Shown here piece by piece: positions 2 through 22,057 of a DNA stretch of 32,000 nucleotides. The notes beneath the pieces were generated by a model. That model saw only the letters and a program-made list of their open reading frames with translations. It was not told the origin of the DNA and did no database searches. Numbering within the stretch: position 1 is the stretch's first letter; every line of letters begins with the position of its first letter. Position numbers and translations under genes: made by a program. The DNA lies in NCBI RefSeq assembly GCF_013407165.1, contig NZ_CP026994.1, positions 834,187 through 866,186 of the forward strand, given 5' to 3'. This stretch comes from Nitrosopumilus oxyclinae (GTDB taxonomy: Archaea; Thermoproteota; Nitrososphaeria; Nitrososphaerales; Nitrosopumilaceae).

Positions 2-265
2 TATGATGCAATAGCAATTGGTTCTGGTTCTGATCAAGTAACTGACTTTTTAGAGAAAACATACAAAGAAGATCTTTCACTTGATGATGCTGCAATATTA
101 GCTTCTGCAGGAATTTATCTTTCAAGTGAAGATAAAGAAGGAACAAACCATATCAGAATGGCATGCATCAAAAAAGAAACAGGGTTGTATGAATTAGTAT
201 CAGATGAACAGATTACAAAATATGCAACTGAAGCTAAAACAAAATACCCACACGAGCAAAAATAA
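2..265 (+). CDS. psmA: Proteasome alpha subunit, C-terminal fragment (5' end lies outside the window)
   Basis: Frame 2 reads YDAIAIGSGSDQVTDFLEKTYKEDLSLDDA...TKYPHEQK with TAA at 263-265. The AIGSG..FLE..YKE region matches the C-terminal third of archaeal 20S alpha subunits. Confidence 0.75.
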   Translation, partial: YDAIAIGSGSDQVTDFLEKTYKEDLSLDDAAILASAGIYLSSEDKEGTNHIRMACIKKETGLYELVSDEQITKYATEAKTKYPHEQK

Positions 266-3832: not shown

Positions 3833-4291
3833 ATGGGTAGATTCAATTACGCTTTCCAAAATTATGACCCAACTAGACACGTACGTTCATCACTACGTGA
3901 AAAAGATATCTCTCACAAACATGCACGTGAAGTTGCAGTCTCAATCAAAGGACTATCAATTGAAAAAGCAAGAGACTATCTTATTGCAGTAATTAACAAA
4001 AAAAGAGCAGTACCATTTGGAAGATACAAAAACCAAGTAGCACATAGACCTGACCCAGGAGTAATGTCTGGACGTTATCCACAAAAAACTGCAAAAGAGT
4101 TCATCAAAGTTTTAGATAATTTAGAATCAAATGCAGAATACAAAGGAATGGATTTAGATAGATTAAGAATTGTAAACGCAACTGTTCACAAAGGAGTAGT
4201 TGTTAAAAGATTCATCCCAAGAGCAATGGGAAGAGCAACTCCAAAGAACAATGTATTAACTCATGTAGAATTGGTGGCAAAGGAGATTTAG
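3833..4291 (+). CDS. rpl22: 50S ribosomal protein L22 (uL22)
   Basis: An ATG at 3833 gives [20 protein letters not shown]..., the archaeal L22/L17e N-terminus. The track ORF begins at a GTG at 3824, so the start is uncertain by 9 nt. Confidence 0.9.
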
Positions 4292-4293
4292 AA

Positions 4294-5082
4294 ATGTCAG
4301 CTGTAAAAAATGTAATTAAAGATAACTACAACATGATGTTACTCAAAGATTATCTCAGAGAGGCAATCAAAGATGCAGGTTTTTCACATGCAGAGATTTC
4401 AAAAACACCAGTTGGTACTAGAGTTGCATTACATGTAACAAGACCTGGAATTGTAATCGGAAGAAAAGGTTCAGGAATTAGAGCACTAACAGAAAAACTT
4501 GCAACAGACTTTGGATTAAAAAACCCACAAATTTCAGTAGTTGAAATTGAAAAACCAGAATTAGCTCCTAGTGTAATGTGTAATAGAATGGCATCACATT
4601 TGGAAAGAGGAACAGCATTTAGAAGAGCAACCATGTGGACACTAAAACAAATTATGGAAGGTGGTGCAATGGGCGTTCAAATTACAATTTCAGGAAAACT
4701 TAGAGGTGACCGTTCAGCATTTGAGAAACACACCCAAGGAATTTTACCAAGAGCAGGACACCATGCAGAGATTATTGTTGATGAAGACATTGCACACGTA
4801 AAAACAGCAATGGGATTAATTGGAGTTAGAATTAGAATTGCTAAAAAAGAAAAACTCATTCCAGAATTTGAAATGAGAACTGAAAAAGCCATGAAAGCAA
4901 ATGCAGTAAAAGAAGAGAAAACCAGAGTTGAAGAAATCGATGTTGAAGGTGCTAAAGTTGAAGTGATTAAAGCACAAGGCAAAAAAGACGATGCAAAATC
5001 AGAATCAGAAAGAATTGCACTTGAAGCAAAGAAAATGGAAACACTTGAAACATTAGAAGAAGAGGAGGCCAAATTGAAATGA
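4294..5082 (+). CDS. rps3: 30S ribosomal protein S3 (uS3) with a Lys/Glu-rich C-terminal tail
   Basis: KH-domain region ([26 protein letters not shown]) and the [10 protein letters not shown] motif match S3. The operon position fits. Confidence 0.93.
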
Positions 5083-5285
5083 CCAGACTCAGTATGAAGA
5101 CAATTAAACAATTAAACGAAAAAGATCTTAAAGGTAAAATTCAAGAAACACGCAGTGAACTTGCCAAACTTAGAATTGATGGTTCTAAAGGAACATTGAG
5201 AAAAGAGAGTGGAAAACTAAAACCATTACGACATGACATTGCAAGAATGCTTACAAGATTAACTGAGATGAGGAAAGAGAAATGA
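5079..5285 (+). CDS. rpl29: 50S ribosomal protein L29 (uL29)
   Basis: 68-aa ORF overlapping the S3 stop (ATGA). The [16 protein letters not shown] helix is typical of L29. Confidence 0.9.
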
Positions 5286-5548
5286 TTACTGCAGACAATA
5301 TAACATCACATGAATTCATAGGATTAGATACAGAGATCATTCAATCCACCAACTCTCAAGTAGTAGGATTAAATGGAAGAATTACCAATGAAACAAAATC
5401 AATGTTTACAATAAACACAGAAAATGGTTCAAAATCCATTGCAAAATCAACCAACAGTTGGAAATTTTCCATTCAAGGCAAGGATGTAATAGTTAAAGGC
5501 ACAAAAATTGCAAAAAGATCATTTGATAGAATTGGAGGAAGAGCATGA
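5282..5548 (+). CDS. rnp1: RNase P protein component 1 (Rpp29/Pop4)
   Basis: 88-aa ORF with HEFIGLDTEIIQSTNSQVVGLNGRITNETKSMFTI, the Rpp29 Sm-like fold signature. It occupies the canonical archaeal position between L29 and S17. Confidence 0.85.
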   Translation: MITADNITSHEFIGLDTEIIQSTNSQVVGLNGRITNETKSMFTINTENGSKSIAKSTNSWKFSIQGKDVIVKGTKIAKRSFDRIGGRA

Positions 5549-16014: not shown

Positions 16015-16839
16015 TTACAATGAGTGTCCAGTTAGTTTCTCATATGCAGTAACATAGCGTTCTGTCATTTTTGAAATTATTTCAGCGGGGATTTCGGGTG
16101 CAACGGGTTCACGTCCTGCATCACGTTCATCATCAAACTGTTTTTGATATCCATTTGCAGTTAACCAATCACGTAAGAGTTGTTTGTCATAGGCTTCTTG
16201 TATTTTTCCTACCTCAAAGGAGTCTTTGGGCCACAAGCGGTATTCATCAGGACCAATTGAATCACCTAATGTAATTTTACCATCCAATAATCCAAACTCT
16301 AATTTCAAATCAGCCAGAATAAATCCAACACCGTCTGCAATTTGCGCCATCTTTTTGTAAATGTCAATTGAAGTTTTTTCTAACCAGGCATATTGTTCTT
16401 CAGAAACAAGTTTCATCTCCAATGCTTTTGCTTTGTTTATTGGAATATCATGTTCAGATTTCGTTGTAGGATCAAATAGAGGCTCAGGGAGTTTTGCAGC
16501 CAATGTGGTATCTGTACCTTCAGGTAAAGTAACCTCACCTTTTTTCCATCTGCTAACTAGACTGCCATAAAAATACCCACGAACTACACATTCGATTGGC
16601 AACATCTTCATTTTTTTAACAATGATTTCAGTGTCTGATTCTCGTCTGATAAAGTGATTAGGTACAGATAATTCGTTAAACCAAAACTCTGCAAATTTAC
16701 AAAGAATCTCACCCTTTCGTGGAATATCTTGTTTGAACTTTACATCAAAAGCAGAAACCCTATCTGAGAATTTGAACAAAATACTGGATTCATCAACATC
16801 ATAAAGATCCTTTACCTTGCCACTTGTTAGAAACTTCAA
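16015..16839 (-). CDS. purC: Phosphoribosylaminoimidazole-succinocarboxamide (SAICAR) synthase
   Basis: GKVKDLYDV..ILFKFSDRVSAFDV...DLKLEFG...DEYRLW are typical PurC motifs. The start is an apparent TTG. Confidence 0.92.
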   Translation of the reverse strand: MKFLTSGKVKDLYDVDESSILFKFSDRVSAFDVKFKQDIPRKGEILCKFAEFWFNELSVPNHFIRRESDTEIIVKKMKMLPIECVVRGYFYGSLVSRWKKGEVTLPEGTDTTLAAKLPEPLFDPTTKSEHDIPINKAKALEMKLVSEEQYAWLEKTSIDIYKKMAQIADGVGFILADLKLEFGLLDGKITLGDSIGPDEYRLWPKDSFEVGKIQEAYDKQLLRDWLTANGYQKQFDDERDAGREPVAPEIPAEIISKMTERYVTAYEKLTGHSL

Positions 16840-17036
16840 ACAATTATGCCTGAAATTGATAGAATTTAACTGCTAGGGCAAGGTCAATTTTCCATTAAAA
16901 GATTGAAGAAACTAGTTTGAATTGTAAAGAGAAAAACAAGATCTATAGATATAGAGATTATTTTAAAATAATAAAAAATTGAGATATGTGAAGGAGAATA
17001 AACTCCCCCACATTTTTGAAGGAGAAATTCTATGGC

Positions 17037-17219
17037 TTATGCCAGTGATGCTACCGTATGGCATAGAATCTCCTCACTGTACATGCATTGACTGTGAAAT
17101 CTAACTTCTGTGGGATTTGTGCATTTTGTACAAAAAAGTTGGAGGGGTTGATTGCAATGAAAACATTGCTTTTCAACATCCAACTCCCCTCCACACACTC
17201 TACACAAAGTGTCTGGCAT
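17037..17219 (-). CDS. Cys-rich mini-protein, paralog 1 of 3 (two predicted zinc sites)
   Basis: 60-aa ORF with C6, C9, C19, C22, C30, C33, H42 and C45, spaced identically to 18372..18557 and 20785..20967. It starts 3 nt after the stop of the upstream TM micro-protein. Confidence 0.7.
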   Translation of the reverse strand: MPDTLCRVCGGELDVEKQCFHCNQPLQLFCTKCTNPTEVRFHSQCMYSEEILCHTVASLA

Positions 17220-17222
17220 TTT

Positions 17223-17381
17223 CTACCACCATGAAACGAGTTGGTAAATATCACCAGTTAGAAATGCAGTTGCGATTCCTGCACCAATGGGCATTCCCAT
17301 TGCTATGCACAGAAGATCAAACTTCACCACTTTCTTAAATGGTGCATGTACCATTTTGTCCCAAGAACTGATTTTTTGCAT
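17223..17381 (-). CDS. Single-TM micro-protein, paralog 1 of 2
   Basis: An ATG at 17381 gives MQKISSWDKMVHAPFKKVVKFDLLCIAMGMPIGAGIATAFL.... The core WDKMVHAPFKKVVKFDL is identical to 20529..20678 but is encoded with 12 synonymous differences. Confidence 0.75.
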   Translation of the reverse strand: MQKISSWDKMVHAPFKKVVKFDLLCIAMGMPIGAGIATAFLTGDIYQLVSWW

Positions 17382-17529
17382 GTTGTTCACCTCAAGGGAA
17401 GTTTCTCCTCCCAATCCTCCATTTGGAAATAATTTCTTCAGGATATGAAGAAACTTTTTCCACGGAAGATTTGACAGACTCTTTGAACTGATTGATTGAT
17501 GAAATGGTTTTCATTGTATCACCCTCCAA

Positions 17530-18024
17530 TCATTCTACTGACACAATCTTGCCTTTGGGTTTTTCTTCGGCAAGAGAGAATGTCAGCTCCAATACGCCGT
17601 TTGTGTATTTTGCTTTTGCGGAATTTTCATCAATGTCATACTTTAATGGAATCTTTGTTCCATACTTTCTTTCTCCGTGTTCAGCAGAGATTGACACGAT
17701 GTTATCTGCAACATTGACCTGAATGTCAGATTTTTCGATTCCTGGCATTTCAGCTACGAGTTGTAAAATGCGTTCTTTTTCATTAATTGTCTCATCCACA
17801 TAGACATCCCGTATGCCAGAATCACTGATTGCAGTGGTTGGTTTTGCATTACCCCATTCTTTTACAACGGGTTTTCCATCAGGTCCCACGGTCATATGAT
17901 AGCCGTAATAGTATGGTCCAATTGTTTGGACTTGGGCTCCGTCTGGAATTTCAAAGACATCCCCCATTGAAAAAAAGGGGCCAGATAATCTTCGAAATGT
18001 TTTTTCGAATTGGTCATCAAACAT
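17530..18024 (-). CDS. hsp20: Small heat shock protein (Hsp20 / alpha-crystallin family)
   Basis: The alpha-crystallin domain is clear: VDETINEKERILQLVAEMPGIEKSDIQVNVADNIVSISAE...AKYTNGVLELTFS. Confidence 0.88.
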   Translation of the reverse strand: MFDDQFEKTFRRLSGPFFSMGDVFEIPDGAQVQTIGPYYYGYHMTVGPDGKPVVKEWGNAKPTTAISDSGIRDVYVDETINEKERILQLVAEMPGIEKSDIQVNVADNIVSISAEHGERKYGTKIPLKYDIDENSAKAKYTNGVLELTFSLAEEKPKGKIVSVE

Positions 18025-18079
18025 CTTTTAATCACCGATTTAATGTAATAGAGATTACAAAATATAAAGATTTTGCATA

Positions 18080-18119
18080 AATTGTCTATATATGACAATT
18101 ATGTCATGTACATGACAAT
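18080..18119. promoter_or_regulatory. Nested palindromes around a TATATAT box in the hsp20 / zinc-finger divergent promoter
   Basis: The sequence reads AATTGTC-tatatat-GACAATT, then ATGACA-atta-TGTCAT, then TGTCATG-ta-CATGACA. The GACAAT/ATTGTC half-site occurs three times within 40 bp. Confidence 0.5.
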
Positions 18120-18150
18120 ATTCAAATATTAGCATTTCAATAAACAGTCC

Positions 18151-18354
18151 ATGCAAACTACGATACAAGAATATGAGAATCAATCAAAACCTAGATCAAG
18201 TAGACAGGTAACCTATTTTTGCAGATTATGTAGAGAATACGGAATAAAAACTCGAAAGGCACATTTACAAAATTACCACAATGCAAACCGAGACACAGTT
18301 ACAAAACGAAGCAATAAGGATCTTGTAGATGTAATTTTTATTGAATCAAGATAA
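18151..18354 (+). CDS. Small C2H2-like zinc-finger protein
   Basis: 67-aa ORF. YFCRLCREYGIKTRKAHLQNYH gives C-x2-C-x10-H-x4-H. Confidence 0.55.
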   Translation: MQTTIQEYENQSKPRSSRQVTYFCRLCREYGIKTRKAHLQNYHNANRDTVTKRSNKDLVDVIFIESR

Positions 18355-18371
18355 TAATTGTATTAAAAAAA

Positions 18372-18557
18372 TTAGTGATGCATATCTGATTCTAAAAGCA
18401 TTCTATTAACATCAATTATCATACATGCAGGATGTGCAATTTTTTCTGCCATTACTCCACAAGTATGACAAAAGAGTCTAGTTGGCTCATTACAGAATTT
18501 GCATCTACGTTCTACTTCTAATCTAGAAGTACATATTCTACAGGATTTGTTTTCCAT
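18372..18557 (-). CDS. Cys-rich mini-protein, paralog 2 of 3
   Basis: 61-aa ORF MENKSCRICTSRLEVERRCKFCNEPTRLFCHTCGVMAEKIAHPAC.... Cys/His spacing is the same as paralogs 1 and 3. Confidence 0.7.
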   Translation of the reverse strand: MENKSCRICTSRLEVERRCKFCNEPTRLFCHTCGVMAEKIAHPACMIIDVNRMLLESDMHH

Positions 18558-18590
18558 AGATACAATATAGTGAAAATAATTTAAAAATTA

Positions 18591-18606
18591 TTCTAAAATT
18601 AGAAAC
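18591..18606. repeat. Short relative of the TTTCTAAA...TTTAGAAA palindrome, lacking the central hexamer
   Basis: ttctaaaattagaaac is followed by a second small hairpin, AATTAG-tttcaa-CTAATT (18611-18628). It lies between the regulator stop and the start of the mini-protein gene. Confidence 0.4.
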
Positions 18607-18679
18607 AGCTAATTAGTTTCAACTAATTTTATAAAATTCAAAAAAGGTTCATTGTCGTTTTGACATATAGAAAGCAAAA

Positions 18680-19480
18680 CTATTCTTTTAATTTACTCTC
18701 TTTGAAAACATCAGAACCATACCAACAATATCTGAAATAGTCAAGACACCATTCATGAAACATTGAATCATCTGAATAAAACATCTCACTAATATCGGAC
18801 TCTCCATCTACTTTTGGAAACATTATGCATGCCTCTTTCTCATTCATCACAAGTACTGTTTGAACATCTTTTGTCATTTTTCTTTGGATTAATCCATCAG
18901 CCATTAATTTATCAAATCCAAATTTCTTGAGAAGTGCCTTCCTTCCTTTTGGAACTACTGCAGATTCAGAAAAAATATAATCAAAGTTTATCCCTTTCTT
19001 GACTTGCTTTATCAGAGGCTCTATCAAATCTAGAGGGACTTCAGATAGCACCTCATAGATATATTCATTAGAATTTTTGTAAATACTCTTCCACTGCTCC
19101 ATTGTTTTAGAAAATCCCTTGACACGCTGACTAACTGCTAATTGCCCACAGCGCATTTGGAATTTATGTGGAATTTCTCCAAAATTGTGCTCTTCAAAAT
19201 ATTTCCTATTTTGTGAAAGGAAAACTAATGAGGGTACCTGAGTGCAAACTGTTTTTCCAAATGTTGTTAACACGTATTTCCCATCATTTTTCTTTTCAAT
19301 CAAACCACTTTCCTCCAATCGTGTGAAATTTCTATGTACTTCTTGTTTAGTTGCACCAATCTCCTTTGCCAATGCAGTCGGGGTAGAATTTTTCTCTAAT
19401 AATTTGAATAAAATTTCCATTCTTTGGGGGCTGGCCAAATCAAGAACATAGTTTGCAGTTTCATCAAAAAGGTCTGTCAA
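18680..19480 (-). CDS. Winged-helix transcriptional regulator with a DUF1724 (FilR1-like) C-terminal domain
   Basis: The N-terminal ArsR-like HTH is RMEILFKLLEKNSTPTALAKEIGATKQEVHRNFTRLEESGLIEK. The C-terminus ...FHEWCLDYFRYCWYGS resembles DUF1724 regulators. The start is an apparent TTG. Confidence 0.6.
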   Translation of the reverse strand: MTDLFDETANYVLDLASPQRMEILFKLLEKNSTPTALAKEIGATKQEVHRNFTRLEESGLIEKKNDGKYVLTTFGKTVCTQVPSLVFLSQNRKYFEEHNFGEIPHKFQMRCGQLAVSQRVKGFSKTMEQWKSIYKNSNEYIYEVLSEVPLDLIEPLIKQVKKGINFDYIFSESAVVPKGRKALLKKFGFDKLMADGLIQRKMTKDVQTVLVMNEKEACIMFPKVDGESDISEMFYSDDSMFHEWCLDYFRYCWYGSDVFKESKLKE

Positions 19481-19521
19481 TGATACGACTACTCAATATA
19501 GGATAAAAATGATTACAGATT

Positions 19522-20511
19522 CTATTCAATTACTTTGATTAGTTCTTTTAGTTTTCTTCTAGATTTTGGAGGTTTTTTCTTATCAGGATATCCAATACAA
19601 AGAATAGATGAAGGTCTCAAATCAGTACCTAAAATTTTCTTTACCTTTTCTTCATCAAACATCCCAATCCAGATCGTACTTAATCCTACACCTGATGCTG
19701 CCAACAATGAAAAGGCAGCCGCAATTGTAGCATCTTGTAATGAAAATTTCTCCAATATTTCTTGAGGGAACTTTAGTTTGACTCTAGAAGGCTCCATACA
19801 AAATACCAAAACTACAGGTGCATTGACATATGGTTGCTTATTTGCAGCCTCTACAAGGGCTTCTTTTGTTTTATCATTTTTAATCAAAAATACCTGAAAT
19901 CCTTGAAAGTTTCCAGCAGTAGGGGCAACATCTGCTGCCGATAAAATCTTGTCAATTTTCCAATCCTCAACTTTGGTTTTAAGAAATTTTCTAGTTGAGC
20001 GTCTAGTAGAGAACACCCTGAACAAATCAGTAGGGGAAAGATCTTGCCTAATTTTTTCAGGTTCTGAAGATAGTATTGCTTCAATGAGGGATTGTTTTGG
20101 ATTTTCTGTAGCAATATCTCCAGATTCTTTATCATCATCTCGAATCCAGACAGAGGGATAGAATTCTTTTGAACCAACGTAAACATATTGTGGTTCATGT
20201 GGGATTTTGGCAAACTCTAAAACTTGTTCTTGTAGTTCAGCAGTCTTTGCCTCAAGTAATCCATGATTTGTTAATGTAAATTGTGTAACATCAGAATTAA
20301 CTCTGATAAAGCTAGACTGATCTTCTAACTCTACTTCACCTGTAGAGTTTTTTTTAAAAATTTCGACCAAACTTTCTAGTTCATTCTTGTTTAGAATGAT
20401 AACATCTGTATCGTCATCATCAACTCCTTTCCAAACTAGCCTACATCCTTCTTTTGATATGTATGACGCCTCAACTGTTTGAAATTGCATTATAGTCATA
20501 TCAATAATCAT
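19522..20511 (-). CDS. Nitroreductase-family protein with an unassigned ~165-aa N-terminal domain
   Basis: The C-terminal ~165 aa (RRSTRKF...ILSAADVAPTAGNFQGFQVFLI...LQDATIAAAFSLLAASGVGLSTIWIG...) have nitroreductase-fold motifs. The N-terminal half matches nothing I recognise. Confidence 0.7.
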   Translation of the reverse strand: MIIDMTIMQFQTVEASYISKEGCRLVWKGVDDDDTDVIILNKNELESLVEIFKKNSTGEVELEDQSSFIRVNSDVTQFTLTNHGLLEAKTAELQEQVLEFAKIPHEPQYVYVGSKEFYPSVWIRDDDKESGDIATENPKQSLIEAILSSEPEKIRQDLSPTDLFRVFSTRRSTRKFLKTKVEDWKIDKILSAADVAPTAGNFQGFQVFLIKNDKTKEALVEAANKQPYVNAPVVLVFCMEPSRVKLKFPQEILEKFSLQDATIAAAFSLLAASGVGLSTIWIGMFDEEKVKKILGTDLRPSSILCIGYPDKKKPPKSRRKLKELIKVIE

Positions 20512-20528
20512 AAAAAATAAGTTTGTTG

Positions 20529-20678
20529 CTAGCCTAATAATCCACTAGCAACAGAGTATGCTCCAATACCCACTCCAATTACTACACCGATTCCCATGCA
20601 GATGAGGTCAAATTTTACGACCTTTTTGAAGGGGGCATGAACCATTTTATCCCAGTTTGAGATTTGATGTGTTTTCAT
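20529..20678 (-). CDS. Single-TM micro-protein, paralog 2 of 2
   Basis: An ATG at 20678 gives MKTHQISNWDKMVHAPFKKVVKFDLICMGIGVVIGVGIGAYSVASGLLG. The start is chosen by alignment with paralog 1; the track ORF extends to 20723. Confidence 0.72.
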   Translation of the reverse strand: MKTHQISNWDKMVHAPFKKVVKFDLICMGIGVVIGVGIGAYSVASGLLG

Positions 20679-20784
20679 GATTATAGTTAGAACTAGTTGC
20701 ATATAGAGTCGGGTAAAACCCATCGATTACAGGTAAGCTAAACAGCTGACCAAGGTATATGATCAATTTTCACATAATTACATC

Positions 20785-20967
20785 ATGAGAATTGATAGTT
20801 GTAGAAAATGTGGAATAGAAATGACAATCAAACAGAAATGCTCAATTTGTCATGAGCCTATCAAGTTTAATTGCAAAAAATGTCATTTTGAATCAGAGGA
20901 ACAAATTCATTCATTGTGTAAAATGACAGATATTAACCACCGGCCATTAATTCCAAAGCCAGCATAG
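20785..20967 (+). CDS. Cys-rich mini-protein, paralog 3 of 3
   Basis: 60-aa ORF MRIDSCRKCGIEMTIKQKCSICHEPIKFNCKKCHFESEEQIHSLC.... It is divergent from TM micro-protein paralog 2. Confidence 0.7.
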   Translation: MRIDSCRKCGIEMTIKQKCSICHEPIKFNCKKCHFESEEQIHSLCKMTDINHRPLIPKPA

Positions 20968-21027
20968 GTAACATACCACCCCCATCACATAAAATGCCAA
21001 AATCAGATAGGTAAGTCTGAACTTATC

Positions 21028-21132
21028 TTAATGTAGAAAATATTTTTGAGCATGCACATTAGAACAATTATCTGAGCAAAAACTAGTGGAATCAGGTATA
21101 AAATCATCATCACAGTTTCTACATTTAGGCAT
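21028..21132 (-). CDS. Possible 34-aa CxxC...CxxxC micro-protein
   Basis: An ATG at 21132 gives MPKCRNCDDDFIPDSTSFCSDNCSNVHAQKYFLH, with TAA at 21028-30. It is below the track cutoff. Confidence 0.3.
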   Translation of the reverse strand: MPKCRNCDDDFIPDSTSFCSDNCSNVHAQKYFLH

Positions 21133-21279
21133 AGTGATTCATACTAGATTAACTTCATAAGTAATAGGTTGTTCAATAAATACAACATTTTTTGTCAAGA
21201 TTCATTTTCTTCCTAAATTGCTCTAAGAATTACTCATAAAAGATATTTAGAAATACCAGATAAATTAGCAGATAATCAA

Positions 21280-21607: not shown

Positions 21608-21703
21608 TTATTTTTTACAACTGTCACAGCTGCAATCAAACATGTCAGCCTTTCCCATGCATTGATCATGGTGTTCATTGTAACATTTGTTACAAATGAC
21701 CAC
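21608..21703 (-). CDS. Possible 31-aa Cys-rich micro-protein coupled to the upstream zinc-finger ORF
   Basis: A GTG at 21703 overlaps the TAG of the upstream ORF (TAGTG). It translates to VVICNKCYNEHHDQCMGKADMFDCSCDSCKK, with TAA at 21608-10. Confidence 0.25.
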   Translation of the reverse strand: MVICNKCYNEHHDQCMGKADMFDCSCDSCKK

Positions 21704-21864
21704 TATGCACTAACCTTCTTAATGTGAGTTTTTTCATGAATCAGTACTTTGTCAAAAGTATCAGAATTTCCATCCCAATGAAAAGTACATACTCTACAAT
21801 TGTATTTCATTTTATTTTGACTTTTCCTCTGTTTTGGTTTCAGACTCTTTGAATGCATTAACAT
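21703..21864 (-). CDS. Small C2H2-like zinc-finger protein
   Basis: YNCRVCTFHWDGNSDTFDKVLIHEKTH gives C-x2-C-x16-H-x3-H, preceded by a basic N-terminus. The start is uncertain: ATG at 21864, TTG at 21894, or the internal MKYNC. Confidence 0.45.
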   Translation of the reverse strand: MLMHSKSLKPKQRKSQNKMKYNCRVCTFHWDGNSDTFDKVLIHEKTHIKKVSA

Positions 21865-22057
21865 CGTCTGCAGATTTGGCCGTACAACAACCAAGTTTTA
21901 ATTTCCCTAGTATTTTTTTGAACATACTTTGTATGATTTTGATTGGATATATACCGACTCTATTATTACATTTCGTGCCTGATTTTCTATATATTTTGGC
22001 ATTTTTCTATGAATTTTAAAGCAAAAATTGATATTCTCATCATTTTACTATATAGAT

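Follow-up and report, generated by a model that had tools for sequence, protein, structure and literature searches.

Ammonia-oxidizing archaea (AOA) belong to the most abundant microbes of the ocean, and their stress regulation and handling of reactive nitrogen are poorly understood. In this study, we analyzed a stretch of 32,000 nt from the genome of Nitrosopumilus oxyclinae (contig NZ_CP026994.1, positions 834,187 to 866,186 of the forward strand; the whole stretch is called the window below), in which two very small open reading frames (ORFs), copy A and copy B, encode one and the same 17-aa peptide. The locus raises the question whether these ORFs are real genes, what holds the common peptide constant, and which function such micro-proteins could have next to genes for a small heat-shock protein and a nitroreductase-family protein. 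A preliminary description of the sequence had regarded both ORFs as genuine genes for membrane micro-proteins under strong purifying selection. Their existence was already known, as RefSeq lists both as hypothetical proteins with short starts (exact look-up). The two copies and their common part (the core) are located as follows:

17223..17381, minus strand: micro-protein copy A, 52 aa, type A, MQKISSWDKMVHAPFKKVVKFDLLCIAMGMPIGAGIATAFLTGDIYQLVSWW; identical to RefSeq WP_179361933.1, orthologs 71-96% identical
20529..20678, minus strand: micro-protein copy B, 49 aa, type B, MKTHQISNWDKMVHAPFKKVVKFDLICMGIGVVIGVGIGAYSVASGLLG; identical to RefSeq WP_179361938.1, orthologs found
17313..17363, minus strand: invariant 17-aa core of copy A, WDKMVHAPFKKVVKFDL; codon comparison, orthologs vary at third positions only
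20604..20654, minus strand: invariant 17-aa core of copy B; codon comparison, third-position variation in orthologs

Codon comparison of the two copies

Translation of both ORFs yielded the identical peptide WDKMVHAPFKKVVKFDL at residues 7-23 of copy A and residues 9-25 of copy B. In line with the preliminary description, 12 of the 17 core codons are unlike, by one base each, and all 12 differences are synonymous; the unchanged codons are those for W, K, M, H, and F. W and M are each encoded by a single codon, which leaves 15 codons open to silent change, 12 of which differ; sorted by degeneracy, a silent change is present in six of the nine two-fold codons and in all six four- or six-fold codons (manual count). 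DNA identity of the core is 76.5%, compared to 100% for the peptide. The formal dN/dS calculation that had been proposed for these ORFs was carried out on the two copies according to Nei and Gojobori. In the core, 12 synonymous differences on 9 synonymous sites indicate saturation, while there are no non-synonymous differences on 42 sites (dN = 0). When 12 substitutions were placed randomly in the core in a simulation, the peptide stayed intact in 0 of 200,000 cases. The following 20 codons, which encode the transmembrane (TM) region, show a dN of 0.55 and a dS of 1.26; compared to the dN of 0 in the core, this shows a core-specific constraint. Silent differences are as numerous as expected for full saturation, without an excess. 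Since the silent sites are saturated, the duplication leading to copies A and B is old, and recent gene conversion, which had already been argued against, does not account for the identity. Since all core differences are silent, the constraint acts on the amino-acid sequence and not on the DNA, so that a conserved DNA motif is likewise not behind the core.

Homologs and coding status of the micro-proteins

For distribution and neighborhood, the searches suggested earlier with the core were performed on several levels. A word-indexed search yielded 34 protein clusters, in which every taxonomically named match belongs to the Nitrosopumilaceae. A genome scan yielded 91 matches, of which 80 loci were kept; they stem from Nitrosopumilus, Nitrosarchaeum, and other Nitrosopumilaceae, usually with two to four copies per genome. 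By a profile search of 1.84 billion representatives, 51 clusters (50% identity) were obtained, whose members are small stand-alone ORFs of 34-105 aa, two junk repeat proteins excepted. The profile matches P0037 (750 aa) and P0071 (1534 aa) were discarded as translations of low-complexity repeats, as was the cluster member P0090 (501 aa), an IS21-type transposase clustered by error. All taxonomically named matches of the family are thus from Nitrosopumilaceae or other Nitrosopumilales, i.e. from AOA. No match of the micro-proteins was obtained with Pfam, PADLOC, or PHROG, and none above threshold with NCBIfam, where the sole match of copy B was BcaP with 14.5 bits compared to a cut-off of 690 bits. 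A scan of viral contigs revealed no relatives of the micro-proteins.

In the family alignment, the columns V11, H12, A13, P14, F15, K16, K17, V19, F21, D22, L23, C25, G29, G33, and G35 are invariant; distant members follow the consensus W..xV[HR]A[PS]F[KR]KV[VI]xFD[LM]LF. Across 61 genomic copies, the entropy in the core columns is zero at codon positions 1 and 2 and 0.35-1.8 bits at position 3, whereby the copies were chosen by the VHAPFKK motif, which fixes positions 1 and 2 in seven columns and leaves the flanking columns and all third positions informative. Frameshifts or stops in orthologous loci, which had been named as a finding that would speak against real genes, are absent, as the ORFs are intact in all 78 genomic copies examined. 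The program-made ORF list contains only longer forms of 63 and 64 aa, as had been pointed out, and the shorter starts assumed for the ~50-aa ORFs are those of RefSeq. The other possibility named, that an antisense gene, an overlapping feature of the opposite strand, or a DNA or RNA element explains the conservation, can practically be dismissed. The antisense frame that shares the wobble positions is open over copy A (17287..17448, plus strand), and with 15 of 18 residues identical between the copies it, too, would be largely kept by the silent changes. In copy B, however, a stop interrupts this frame within the core, and none of the antisense frames is free of stops, which are present in 60-78 of the 78 orthologs depending on the frame. 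The divergence of the core DNA described above also speaks against it, and Rfam with permissive thresholds (16800..21200) gave only chance-level microRNA and snoRNA matches. Copies A and B are real genes that encode proteins of one small family, and purifying selection on this family is extreme.

Predicted architecture

Each protein contains one hydropathic segment of TM length, with best 19-residue Kyte-Doolittle windows of 1.98 and 2.16. The N-terminal segment carries five K/R compared to two D/E, and the C-terminal tail is free of K/R; from this charge distribution an N-in/C-out orientation is predicted. For VHAPFKKVVKF a hydrophobic moment of 0.58 (100 degrees) was calculated, and in a helix K9, K16, K17, and K20 of the core lie on one side, with W7, V11, F15, V18, and F21 on the opposite side. 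AlphaFold2 with the family alignment modeled one continuous helix comprising residues 6-42 (mean predicted local distance difference test score, pLDDT, 81). The TM helix contains a glycine zipper of the form (G/A/S)xxxGxxxG, which reads GMPIGAGIA for copy A and GVVIGVGIG for copy B; the alignment positions G29, G33, and G35 do not vary. The Gly-rich C-terminal TM helix assigned earlier to each copy is in agreement with hydropathy, charge bias, and AlphaFold2. Taking a ~20-residue hydrophobic helix within the last ~30 residues, positive charge on its N-terminal side, and absence of a signal peptide plus mature domain as characteristics of tail-anchored proteins, both micro-proteins are predicted to be tail-anchored, N-in single-TM proteins. 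The predicted layout consists of ~22-25 cytoplasmic residues with positive net charge including the amphipathic core helix, followed by the glycine-zipper TM helix and 0-11 external residues.

Type A genes are part of hsp20 operons

Gene neighborhoods were determined by tblastn of the neighbors in the window against all loci, by motif scans, and by clustering of neighboring ORFs. Distant homologs were mostly found on short contigs with little gene context. The analysis revealed an ancient split of the family into two types of paralogs, each with a conserved gene setting of its own. Type A has a TM helix ...MGMPIGAGIATAFLTGDIY or occurs as a 67-aa variant. The following features belong to its setting in the window:

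17530..18024, minus strand: hsp20, first gene of the type A operon; Pfam HSP20, NCBIfam archaeal Hsp20 with 164 bits compared to a cut-off of 140
17392..17514, minus strand: orf45, conserved 40-aa ORF between hsp20 and copy A, C-terminus KWRIGRRNFP, MKTISSINQFKESVKSSVEKVSSYPEEIISKWRIGRRNFP
17037..17219, minus strand: CysA (C5F49_04880), 60-aa Zn-ribbon mini-protein of the MPDTLC type, 3 nt downstream of copy A
18044..18059, minus strand: palindrome TGTAAT-N4-ATTACA, candidate heat-shock operator, just downstream of the hsp20 TATA-like box (18060..18070)

The coordinates confirm the earlier placement of copy A downstream of hsp20 and 3 nt upstream of a Cys-rich ORF. In every type A locus listed, hsp20 lies upstream on the same strand, and the operon order is hsp20-orf45-micro-CysA, with orf45 being often, not always, present; homologs of orf45 with 50-65% identity were found by tblastn at the same position in L002-L005. 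A CysA-type gene lies directly downstream on the same strand in nine of nine loci with adequate flanks, either after a gap of 0-13 nt or with a 20-nt overlap, which is the arrangement of the 60-aa type A variants and suggests translational coupling. The pairing of micro-protein and CysA is also kept in L087, which carries a divergent type A homolog. The palindrome in the hsp20 promoter is kept in most of nine aligned hsp20 upstream regions.

Some further details of this setting were observed. In L002, orf45 runs in frame into the micro ORF without an intervening stop, so that a fused product of ~100 aa is possible. The 60-aa variants (L002-L005) end with ...WVIENARHIM; read in another frame, these bases encode the MPDTLC start of CysA. 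The window (17214..17231) uses a different frame for the tail (...VENARHFV*), so that a shift of frame close to the C-terminus distinguishes the 52-aa form from the 60-aa form. That the tail looks conserved is probably a consequence of constraint on CysA. In L087, the divergent homolog is preceded by a 38-aa ORF (2..118) resembling only the N-terminal region of Hsp20 (MMNDEFFGNMLRRLSNPFFNMDDAFE...), which may be a truncated or split hsp20. A second hsp20-promoter palindrome, TGTCAT-N4-ATGACA at 18102..18117, occurs in a subset of the regions and is another candidate heat-shock operator. Divergent from hsp20, a 67-aa ORF (18151..18354, plus strand) with a C2H2-like motif (CRLC...HLQNYH) and no Pfam match has counterparts with 71-76% identity at the same relative position in L001 and L004.

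Type B genes precede a nitroreductase and a winged-helix regulator

Type B has the C-terminal pattern ...GIGxVxGxGxGAYxVASGLLG and relatives, and in most cases heads an operon that further encodes a 329-aa nitroreductase and/or a 266-aa winged-helix regulator. In the window its setting comprises:

19522..20511, minus strand: nitroreductase-family protein (Pfam PF00881) with ~160-aa N-terminal extension; RefSeq form 322 aa, start 20490
18680..19480, minus strand: winged-helix regulator, 266 aa, PF25213 HVO_A0261_N / ArsR-like N-terminus plus a C-terminal domain without family
20785..20967, plus strand: CysC (C5F49_04910), 60-aa Zn-ribbon paralog of the MRIDSC type, divergent from copy B
20732..20751, no strand: palindrome GGTMAGCT-N4-AGCTKACC, candidate operator between the promoters of copy B and CysC, single occurrence in the window
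20699..20708, minus strand: TATA-like box of copy B, ~25 nt upstream of the ATG, conserved alignment block
20754..20764, plus strand: putative TATA-like box of CysC, ~26 nt upstream of the ATG, deduced from the alignment

Here, too, the coordinates agree with what had been described before, i.e. copy B is divergent from the Cys-rich ORF and directly upstream of the nitroreductase gene, which is followed by the regulator gene. The distance from copy B to the nitroreductase gene is 17 nt, or 38 nt with the RefSeq start, and in about 25 loci it is 18-60 nt. When compared with PDB sequences, the nitroreductase domain matches ordinary flavin reductases only, the best matches being NAD(P)H:FMN oxidoreductases; weak likeness below threshold was found to SagB (E = 6e-4, 19.3 bits compared to a cut-off of 78.4) and also to albonoursin synthase. 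Residues 1-160 of the nitroreductase have no Pfam, NCBIfam, or PDB match and are kept in all close orthologs, and a 200-aa nitroreductase near the distant homolog in L081 is without this extension. The regulator gene is the commonest neighbor: 41 of 79 micro genes have it at a distance of no more than 2.5 kb. A spacing of 8 nt separates the distant homolog P0073 from a regulator ortholog that aligns without gaps at 65% identity. The regulator has no match among PDB sequences; it matches ArsR-like helix-turn-helix models and scored 21.7 bits with the SdpR model (cut-off 100).

The palindrome is closely associated with type B. Allowing up to two mismatches, it was found in 46 of 66 type B upstream regions and in none of 10 type A regions; in the former, it starts 83-125 nt ahead of the codon for the Val of VHAPFKK. 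In total, 53 occurrences were detected in 810 kb of loci, and 46 of these lie upstream of type B genes; the other seven precede the regulator gene (L025), variant type B genes (L048, L060), and members of a second family of tail-anchored micro-proteins (TA2, see below). No occurrence was detected in front of hsp20 or copy A or among the distant loci L081-L088, and the hsp20-promoter palindromes are unlike it. From these positions we infer that the 266-aa regulator may bind the type B palindrome and may regulate its own expression. Promoter features were taken from an alignment of 19 type B upstream regions. TATA-like boxes ~25 nt before both divergent ATGs suggest leaderless mRNAs with putative transcription start sites at or near the start codons, and support the short start. 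A six-T run located right after the stop of copy B and before the nitroreductase start (20500..20528, minus strand) might be a partial archaeal terminator, and the RefSeq nitroreductase start is preceded by ACTATAATG, similar to the ACTATAATCATG context at the start of copy B.

Zn-ribbon mini-proteins encoded next to the micro-proteins

In addition to CysA and CysC, a third Cys-rich paralog is encoded in the window:

18372..18557, minus strand: CysB (C5F49_04895), 61-aa Zn-ribbon paralog of the MENKSC type, between the regulator gene and hsp20

A CysB-type gene also lies upstream of hsp20 in L008, and a divergent CysC-type gene ~143-160 nt from type B was found in at least 30 of 60 loci by regular expression and in more by tblastn. 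The three paralogs have the invariant ligand pattern CxxC-x9-CxxC-x7-CxxC-x8-HxxC and share M1, C6, R7, C9, C19, C22, C30, C33, H42, and C45, so that the eight invariant Cys/His ligands are enough for two zinc sites. AlphaFold2 modeled CysC as two beta-hairpins plus a helix (mean pLDDT 77.5), and Foldseek gave weak generic matches (E above 0.2) to the zinc ribbons of NudC, Csl4, RPB9, and TFS; in Pfam, weak matches below threshold to B-box, HIT, and double-zinc-ribbon models were obtained. With paired CxxC knuckles on beta-hairpins in the model, these proteins have the hallmarks of zinc ribbons, and zinc binding is predicted. The pairing of micro-proteins with Cys-rich mini-proteins, noted at first for the two copies, recurs across loci and is not confined to the window: a small ORF with the Zn motif is present within 500 nt of 49 of 73 micro genes compared to 18% at control positions in the same loci, a comparison that is not corrected for shared ancestry.

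A type B operon next to the oxidase MCO4

In L067, a locus from a metagenome-assembled genome (MAG) of Nitrosopumilus sp., the order is palindrome, TA2, oxidase, 127-aa membrane protein, type B micro-protein, nitroreductase, regulator. The micro-protein of this locus is 94% identical to copy B (manual count). The oxidase (4130..5464) shows ~88% identity over 408 residues to PDB 9CCK (manual count from the alignment), which is Nmar_1354 or MCO4, an enzyme oxidizing hydroxylamine to nitroxyl (PMC11761707). Two genes lie between the oxidase and the nitroreductase gene in L067, which agrees with the numbering Nmar_1354 ... Nmar_1357. For the cluster Nmar_1352-1357 a role in the processing of NO was proposed (10.1101/2021.04.01.436977). 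The MCO4-nitroreductase cluster is implicated in the handling of hydroxylamine, HNO, and NO and in O2 production, and the nitroreductase family resembles one that is induced during anoxic O2 production. Furthermore, biofilms of three AOA show up-regulation of a nitroreductase family and of MCO4a (PMC12448741), and HSP20 of AOA is induced by heat (PMC12974425) and, in sponge symbionts, by hypoxia (10.1101/2023.02.27.530229).

Proposed function and alternative explanations

Taking the well-supported parts together, we tentatively propose, with somewhat less than even confidence, that the micro-proteins are an uncharacterized family of stress-induced membrane docking adaptors. The proteins would be induced by heat, redox, or nitrosative stress; the glycine-zipper helix would anchor them and probably also oligomerize them; and the invariant basic amphipathic helix would recruit a conserved soluble partner to the cytoplasmic face of the membrane. 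By gene linkage, the co-encoded Zn-ribbon mini-proteins would be the leading candidates for this partner. A more specific version, which we consider clearly improbable, is that micro-protein and Zn-ribbon protein form a two-part membrane-tethered stress switch, in which the tail-anchored peptide would hold a zinc- or redox-sensitive mini-protein or the 266-aa regulator and release it upon heat or nitrosative stress, thereby controlling the hsp20 operon and the MCO4-nitroreductase cluster (Nmar_1354 to Nmar_1357).

Several observations weigh against the adaptor proposal. Identity between the Zn-ribbon paralogs amounts to only 28%, in contrast to the identical core of the micro-proteins, which is a poor fit to each micro-protein binding its own neighbor via the core; a single shared partner (the regulator, Hsp20, or a general machine) or a membrane surface may fix the core. 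A Zn-ribbon partner is missing beside about half of the type B genes, and Zn-ribbon genes without an adjoining micro gene occur, namely CysB in the window and two in L007. A metal site at His12/Cys25 as a family-wide feature was rejected, as distant members carry Arg and Phe at these positions. With respect to reactive nitrogen, the correspondence of the copy B operon to Nmar_1356-1358, and with it the orthology of the nitroreductase to Nmar_1357, would follow from the gene order in one N. maritimus-like MAG (L067), N. maritimus is not named among the best 120 nitroreductase matches listed, and an MCO4-type oxidase is not encoded in this window.

Among the alternatives, a role of the micro-protein in sensing membrane stress or as an anchor, by which the 266-aa regulator would be sequestered or released, similar to SdpI/SdpR or PspB-PspC/PspA and with both cores binding one regulator, appears unlikely but has several points in its favor. 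The regulator gene is the commonest neighbor and this adjacency is kept in a distant lineage, in which the micro core is ~40% identical (manual count) and the regulator 65%; the palindrome precedes both the operon and the lone regulator gene of L025, fitting autoregulation; the N-terminus of the regulator is ArsR/SmtB-like with weak likeness to SdpR below threshold; and one shared partner is the simplest account of an identical core in two paralogs. However, type A genes never adjoin the regulator gene and lack the palindrome, about half of the micro genes have no regulator gene within 2.5 kb, and a micro gene that is just a regulated target of the regulator would explain the adjacency equally well. 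Small accessory subunits such as AcrZ, KdpF, and CydX in bacteria and phospholamban in animals suggest another role, in which the glycine zipper would pack on the TM anchor of a larger enzyme or transporter, e.g. MCO4 or the 127-aa membrane protein, and stabilize or tune it. Size and architecture fit, the Gly positions of the TM helix are invariant, and in L067 the type B gene is located two genes downstream of MCO4 with the 127-aa membrane protein in between, while L072 and L068 contain an MCO4 ortholog on the opposite strand within ±6 kb. Moreover, the N-terminal membrane anchor of MCO4 (VGVIIGFGIAF) has a small-xxx-small motif like the micro glycine zipper. We nevertheless regard this role as quite unlikely, since the strongest constraint lies on the cytoplasmic peptide and not on the TM helix, MCO4 orthologs are near only 3 of about 79 micro genes, and type A is part of an hsp20 operon without a membrane enzyme.

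The remaining two alternatives attribute an activity to the peptide itself. A toxin- or holin-type pore former or depolarizer with the glycine zipper as oligomeric channel would agree with a ~50-aa single-TM peptide with GxxxGxxxG, with several paralogs per genome, and with a promoter that looks tightly regulated. Such peptides usually evolve fast, whereas here the soluble part is invariant across genera. As there is also no phage or defense context (no PADLOC and no PHROG match, none in viral contigs), no antisense-RNA family was found with Rfam, and the genes are in operons and translationally coupled with housekeeping-type stress genes, a membrane-active peptide is very unlikely. Highly improbable is a ribosomally synthesized and post-translationally modified peptide (RiPP) precursor with the N-terminus as leader and the Gly-rich C-terminus as core peptide modified by a SagB-like flavoenzyme of the nitroreductase fold. 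The layout with a conserved N-terminus and a C-terminal part that is more variable and contains Gly, Cys, and Ser, the nitroreductase-superfamily gene shortly downstream of many type B copies, its sub-threshold likeness to SagB and albonoursin synthase, and its 160-aa N-terminal domain without family match would be consistent with this. Yet the C-terminal part is a hydrophobic helix of 20-24 residues that is conserved per type with invariant Gly spacing and thus not hypervariable, type A is never near the enzyme, the best matches of the enzyme are the oxidoreductases mentioned above, and none of the neighbor clusters listed, not all of which were scanned with Pfam, looks like a cyclodehydratase (YcaO) or another RiPP enzyme.

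Comparison with known systems

Regulatory single-pass proteins such as AcrZ, KdpF, MgrB, and PspB, as well as phospholamban and sarcolipin, have ~30-75 residues, bind a larger protein, and have their genes in or next to the operon of the partner or regulator. The micro-proteins resemble this class in size, in the single TM helix, and in the short cytoplasmic amphipathic segment often present there. They differ from it in that no sequence relationship was found (no Pfam or NCBIfam match), the soluble 17-aa segment and not the TM helix is invariant, all named matches are from AOA, and the genes are paired with those of Zn-ribbon mini-proteins. In Bacillus subtilis, the ArsR-family autorepressor SdpR is sequestered at the membrane by the co-encoded multi-pass protein SdpI. 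Similarly, type B combines an ArsR-like winged-helix regulator in an operon with a predicted membrane protein and an upstream palindrome, but the micro-protein has no SdpI homology (no family match) and the regulator, with 266 aa, contains an extra C-terminal domain. Glycine-zipper helices of the (G/A/S)xxxGxxxG type drive tight packing or form homo-oligomeric channels; the spacing in copy B (G-VVI-G-VGI-G) and copy A (G-MPI-G-AGI-A) places the micro-proteins in this motif class, which is not a homologous family. With the type I toxins Hok, TisB, and Fst, they share size, a single TM helix, and several copies per genome, but not the extremely conserved soluble part and the location in stress-gene operons, and neither an antisense RNA nor a mobile or phage context was found. 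Regarding the Cys-rich partners, small zinc-finger proteins are known from Haloferax volcanii (PMC10117724), and Brz of Halobacterium salinarum is a small zinc-finger protein regulating its neighboring gene (PMC2253796). The partners are closest to such Brz-type archaeal zinc fingers, with ~60 aa, several CxxC pairs, and genes beside linked genes; unlike these, they show three CxxC plus HxxC and a systematic pairing with a TM micro-protein, and no homology was detectable.

In the literature searched, the definition of the family, its two-type structure, the Zn-ribbon pairing, the candidate operator, and the placement with hsp20 and the MCO4-nitroreductase cluster are apparently undescribed. 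Small single-pass regulatory or adaptor membrane proteins are known as a kind; the one described here is lineage-restricted with an unusual pattern of constraint. Without a curated model, the family is conserved across the Nitrosopumilaceae more tightly than most enzymes, and it recurs beside a small heat-shock protein, a nitroreductase family, and, in an N. maritimus-like genome, the oxidase Nmar_1354. Handles for experiments are the invariant 25-residue peptide, the palindrome as possible operator of the 266-aa regulator, and the regulon predicted here. If the proteins were adaptors or switches, they would represent a missing regulatory layer in AOA physiology and a clean case of function in archaeal proteins of less than 60 aa; a stress switch would represent a novel kind of archaeal signal-transduction module, with genes implicated in the handling of hydroxylamine, HNO, and NO in ammonia oxidizers as its targets. 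Even as structural membrane peptides they would constitute a well-documented conserved hypothetical family.

Further observations

The TA2 family mentioned above consists of tail-anchored proteins of ~49 aa (...MPRHKK.FYGFYI...) with the same promoter palindrome, as in L067 (3968..4117). TA2 genes were also found in L071, L033, L029, L026, L057, L056, and L052, and together with the 127-aa membrane protein TA2 often replaces the Zn-ribbon gene as divergent neighbor of type B. A contig of 2463 bp (L018, DATGBV010000057.1), binned as a MAG of a Flavobacteriaceae bacterium, carries a typical type B gene and is most likely a mis-binned archaeal contig. Near CysC in the window, further tiny Cys/His-rich ORFs are located at 21028..21132, 21608..21703, and 21703..21894, all on the minus strand; homologs of two of them adjoin micro genes elsewhere (61% identity in L013 and 76% in L056). 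Here, genes for very small proteins with zinc motifs seem to form an island that is inserted between the purine-biosynthesis genes flanking it in the window.

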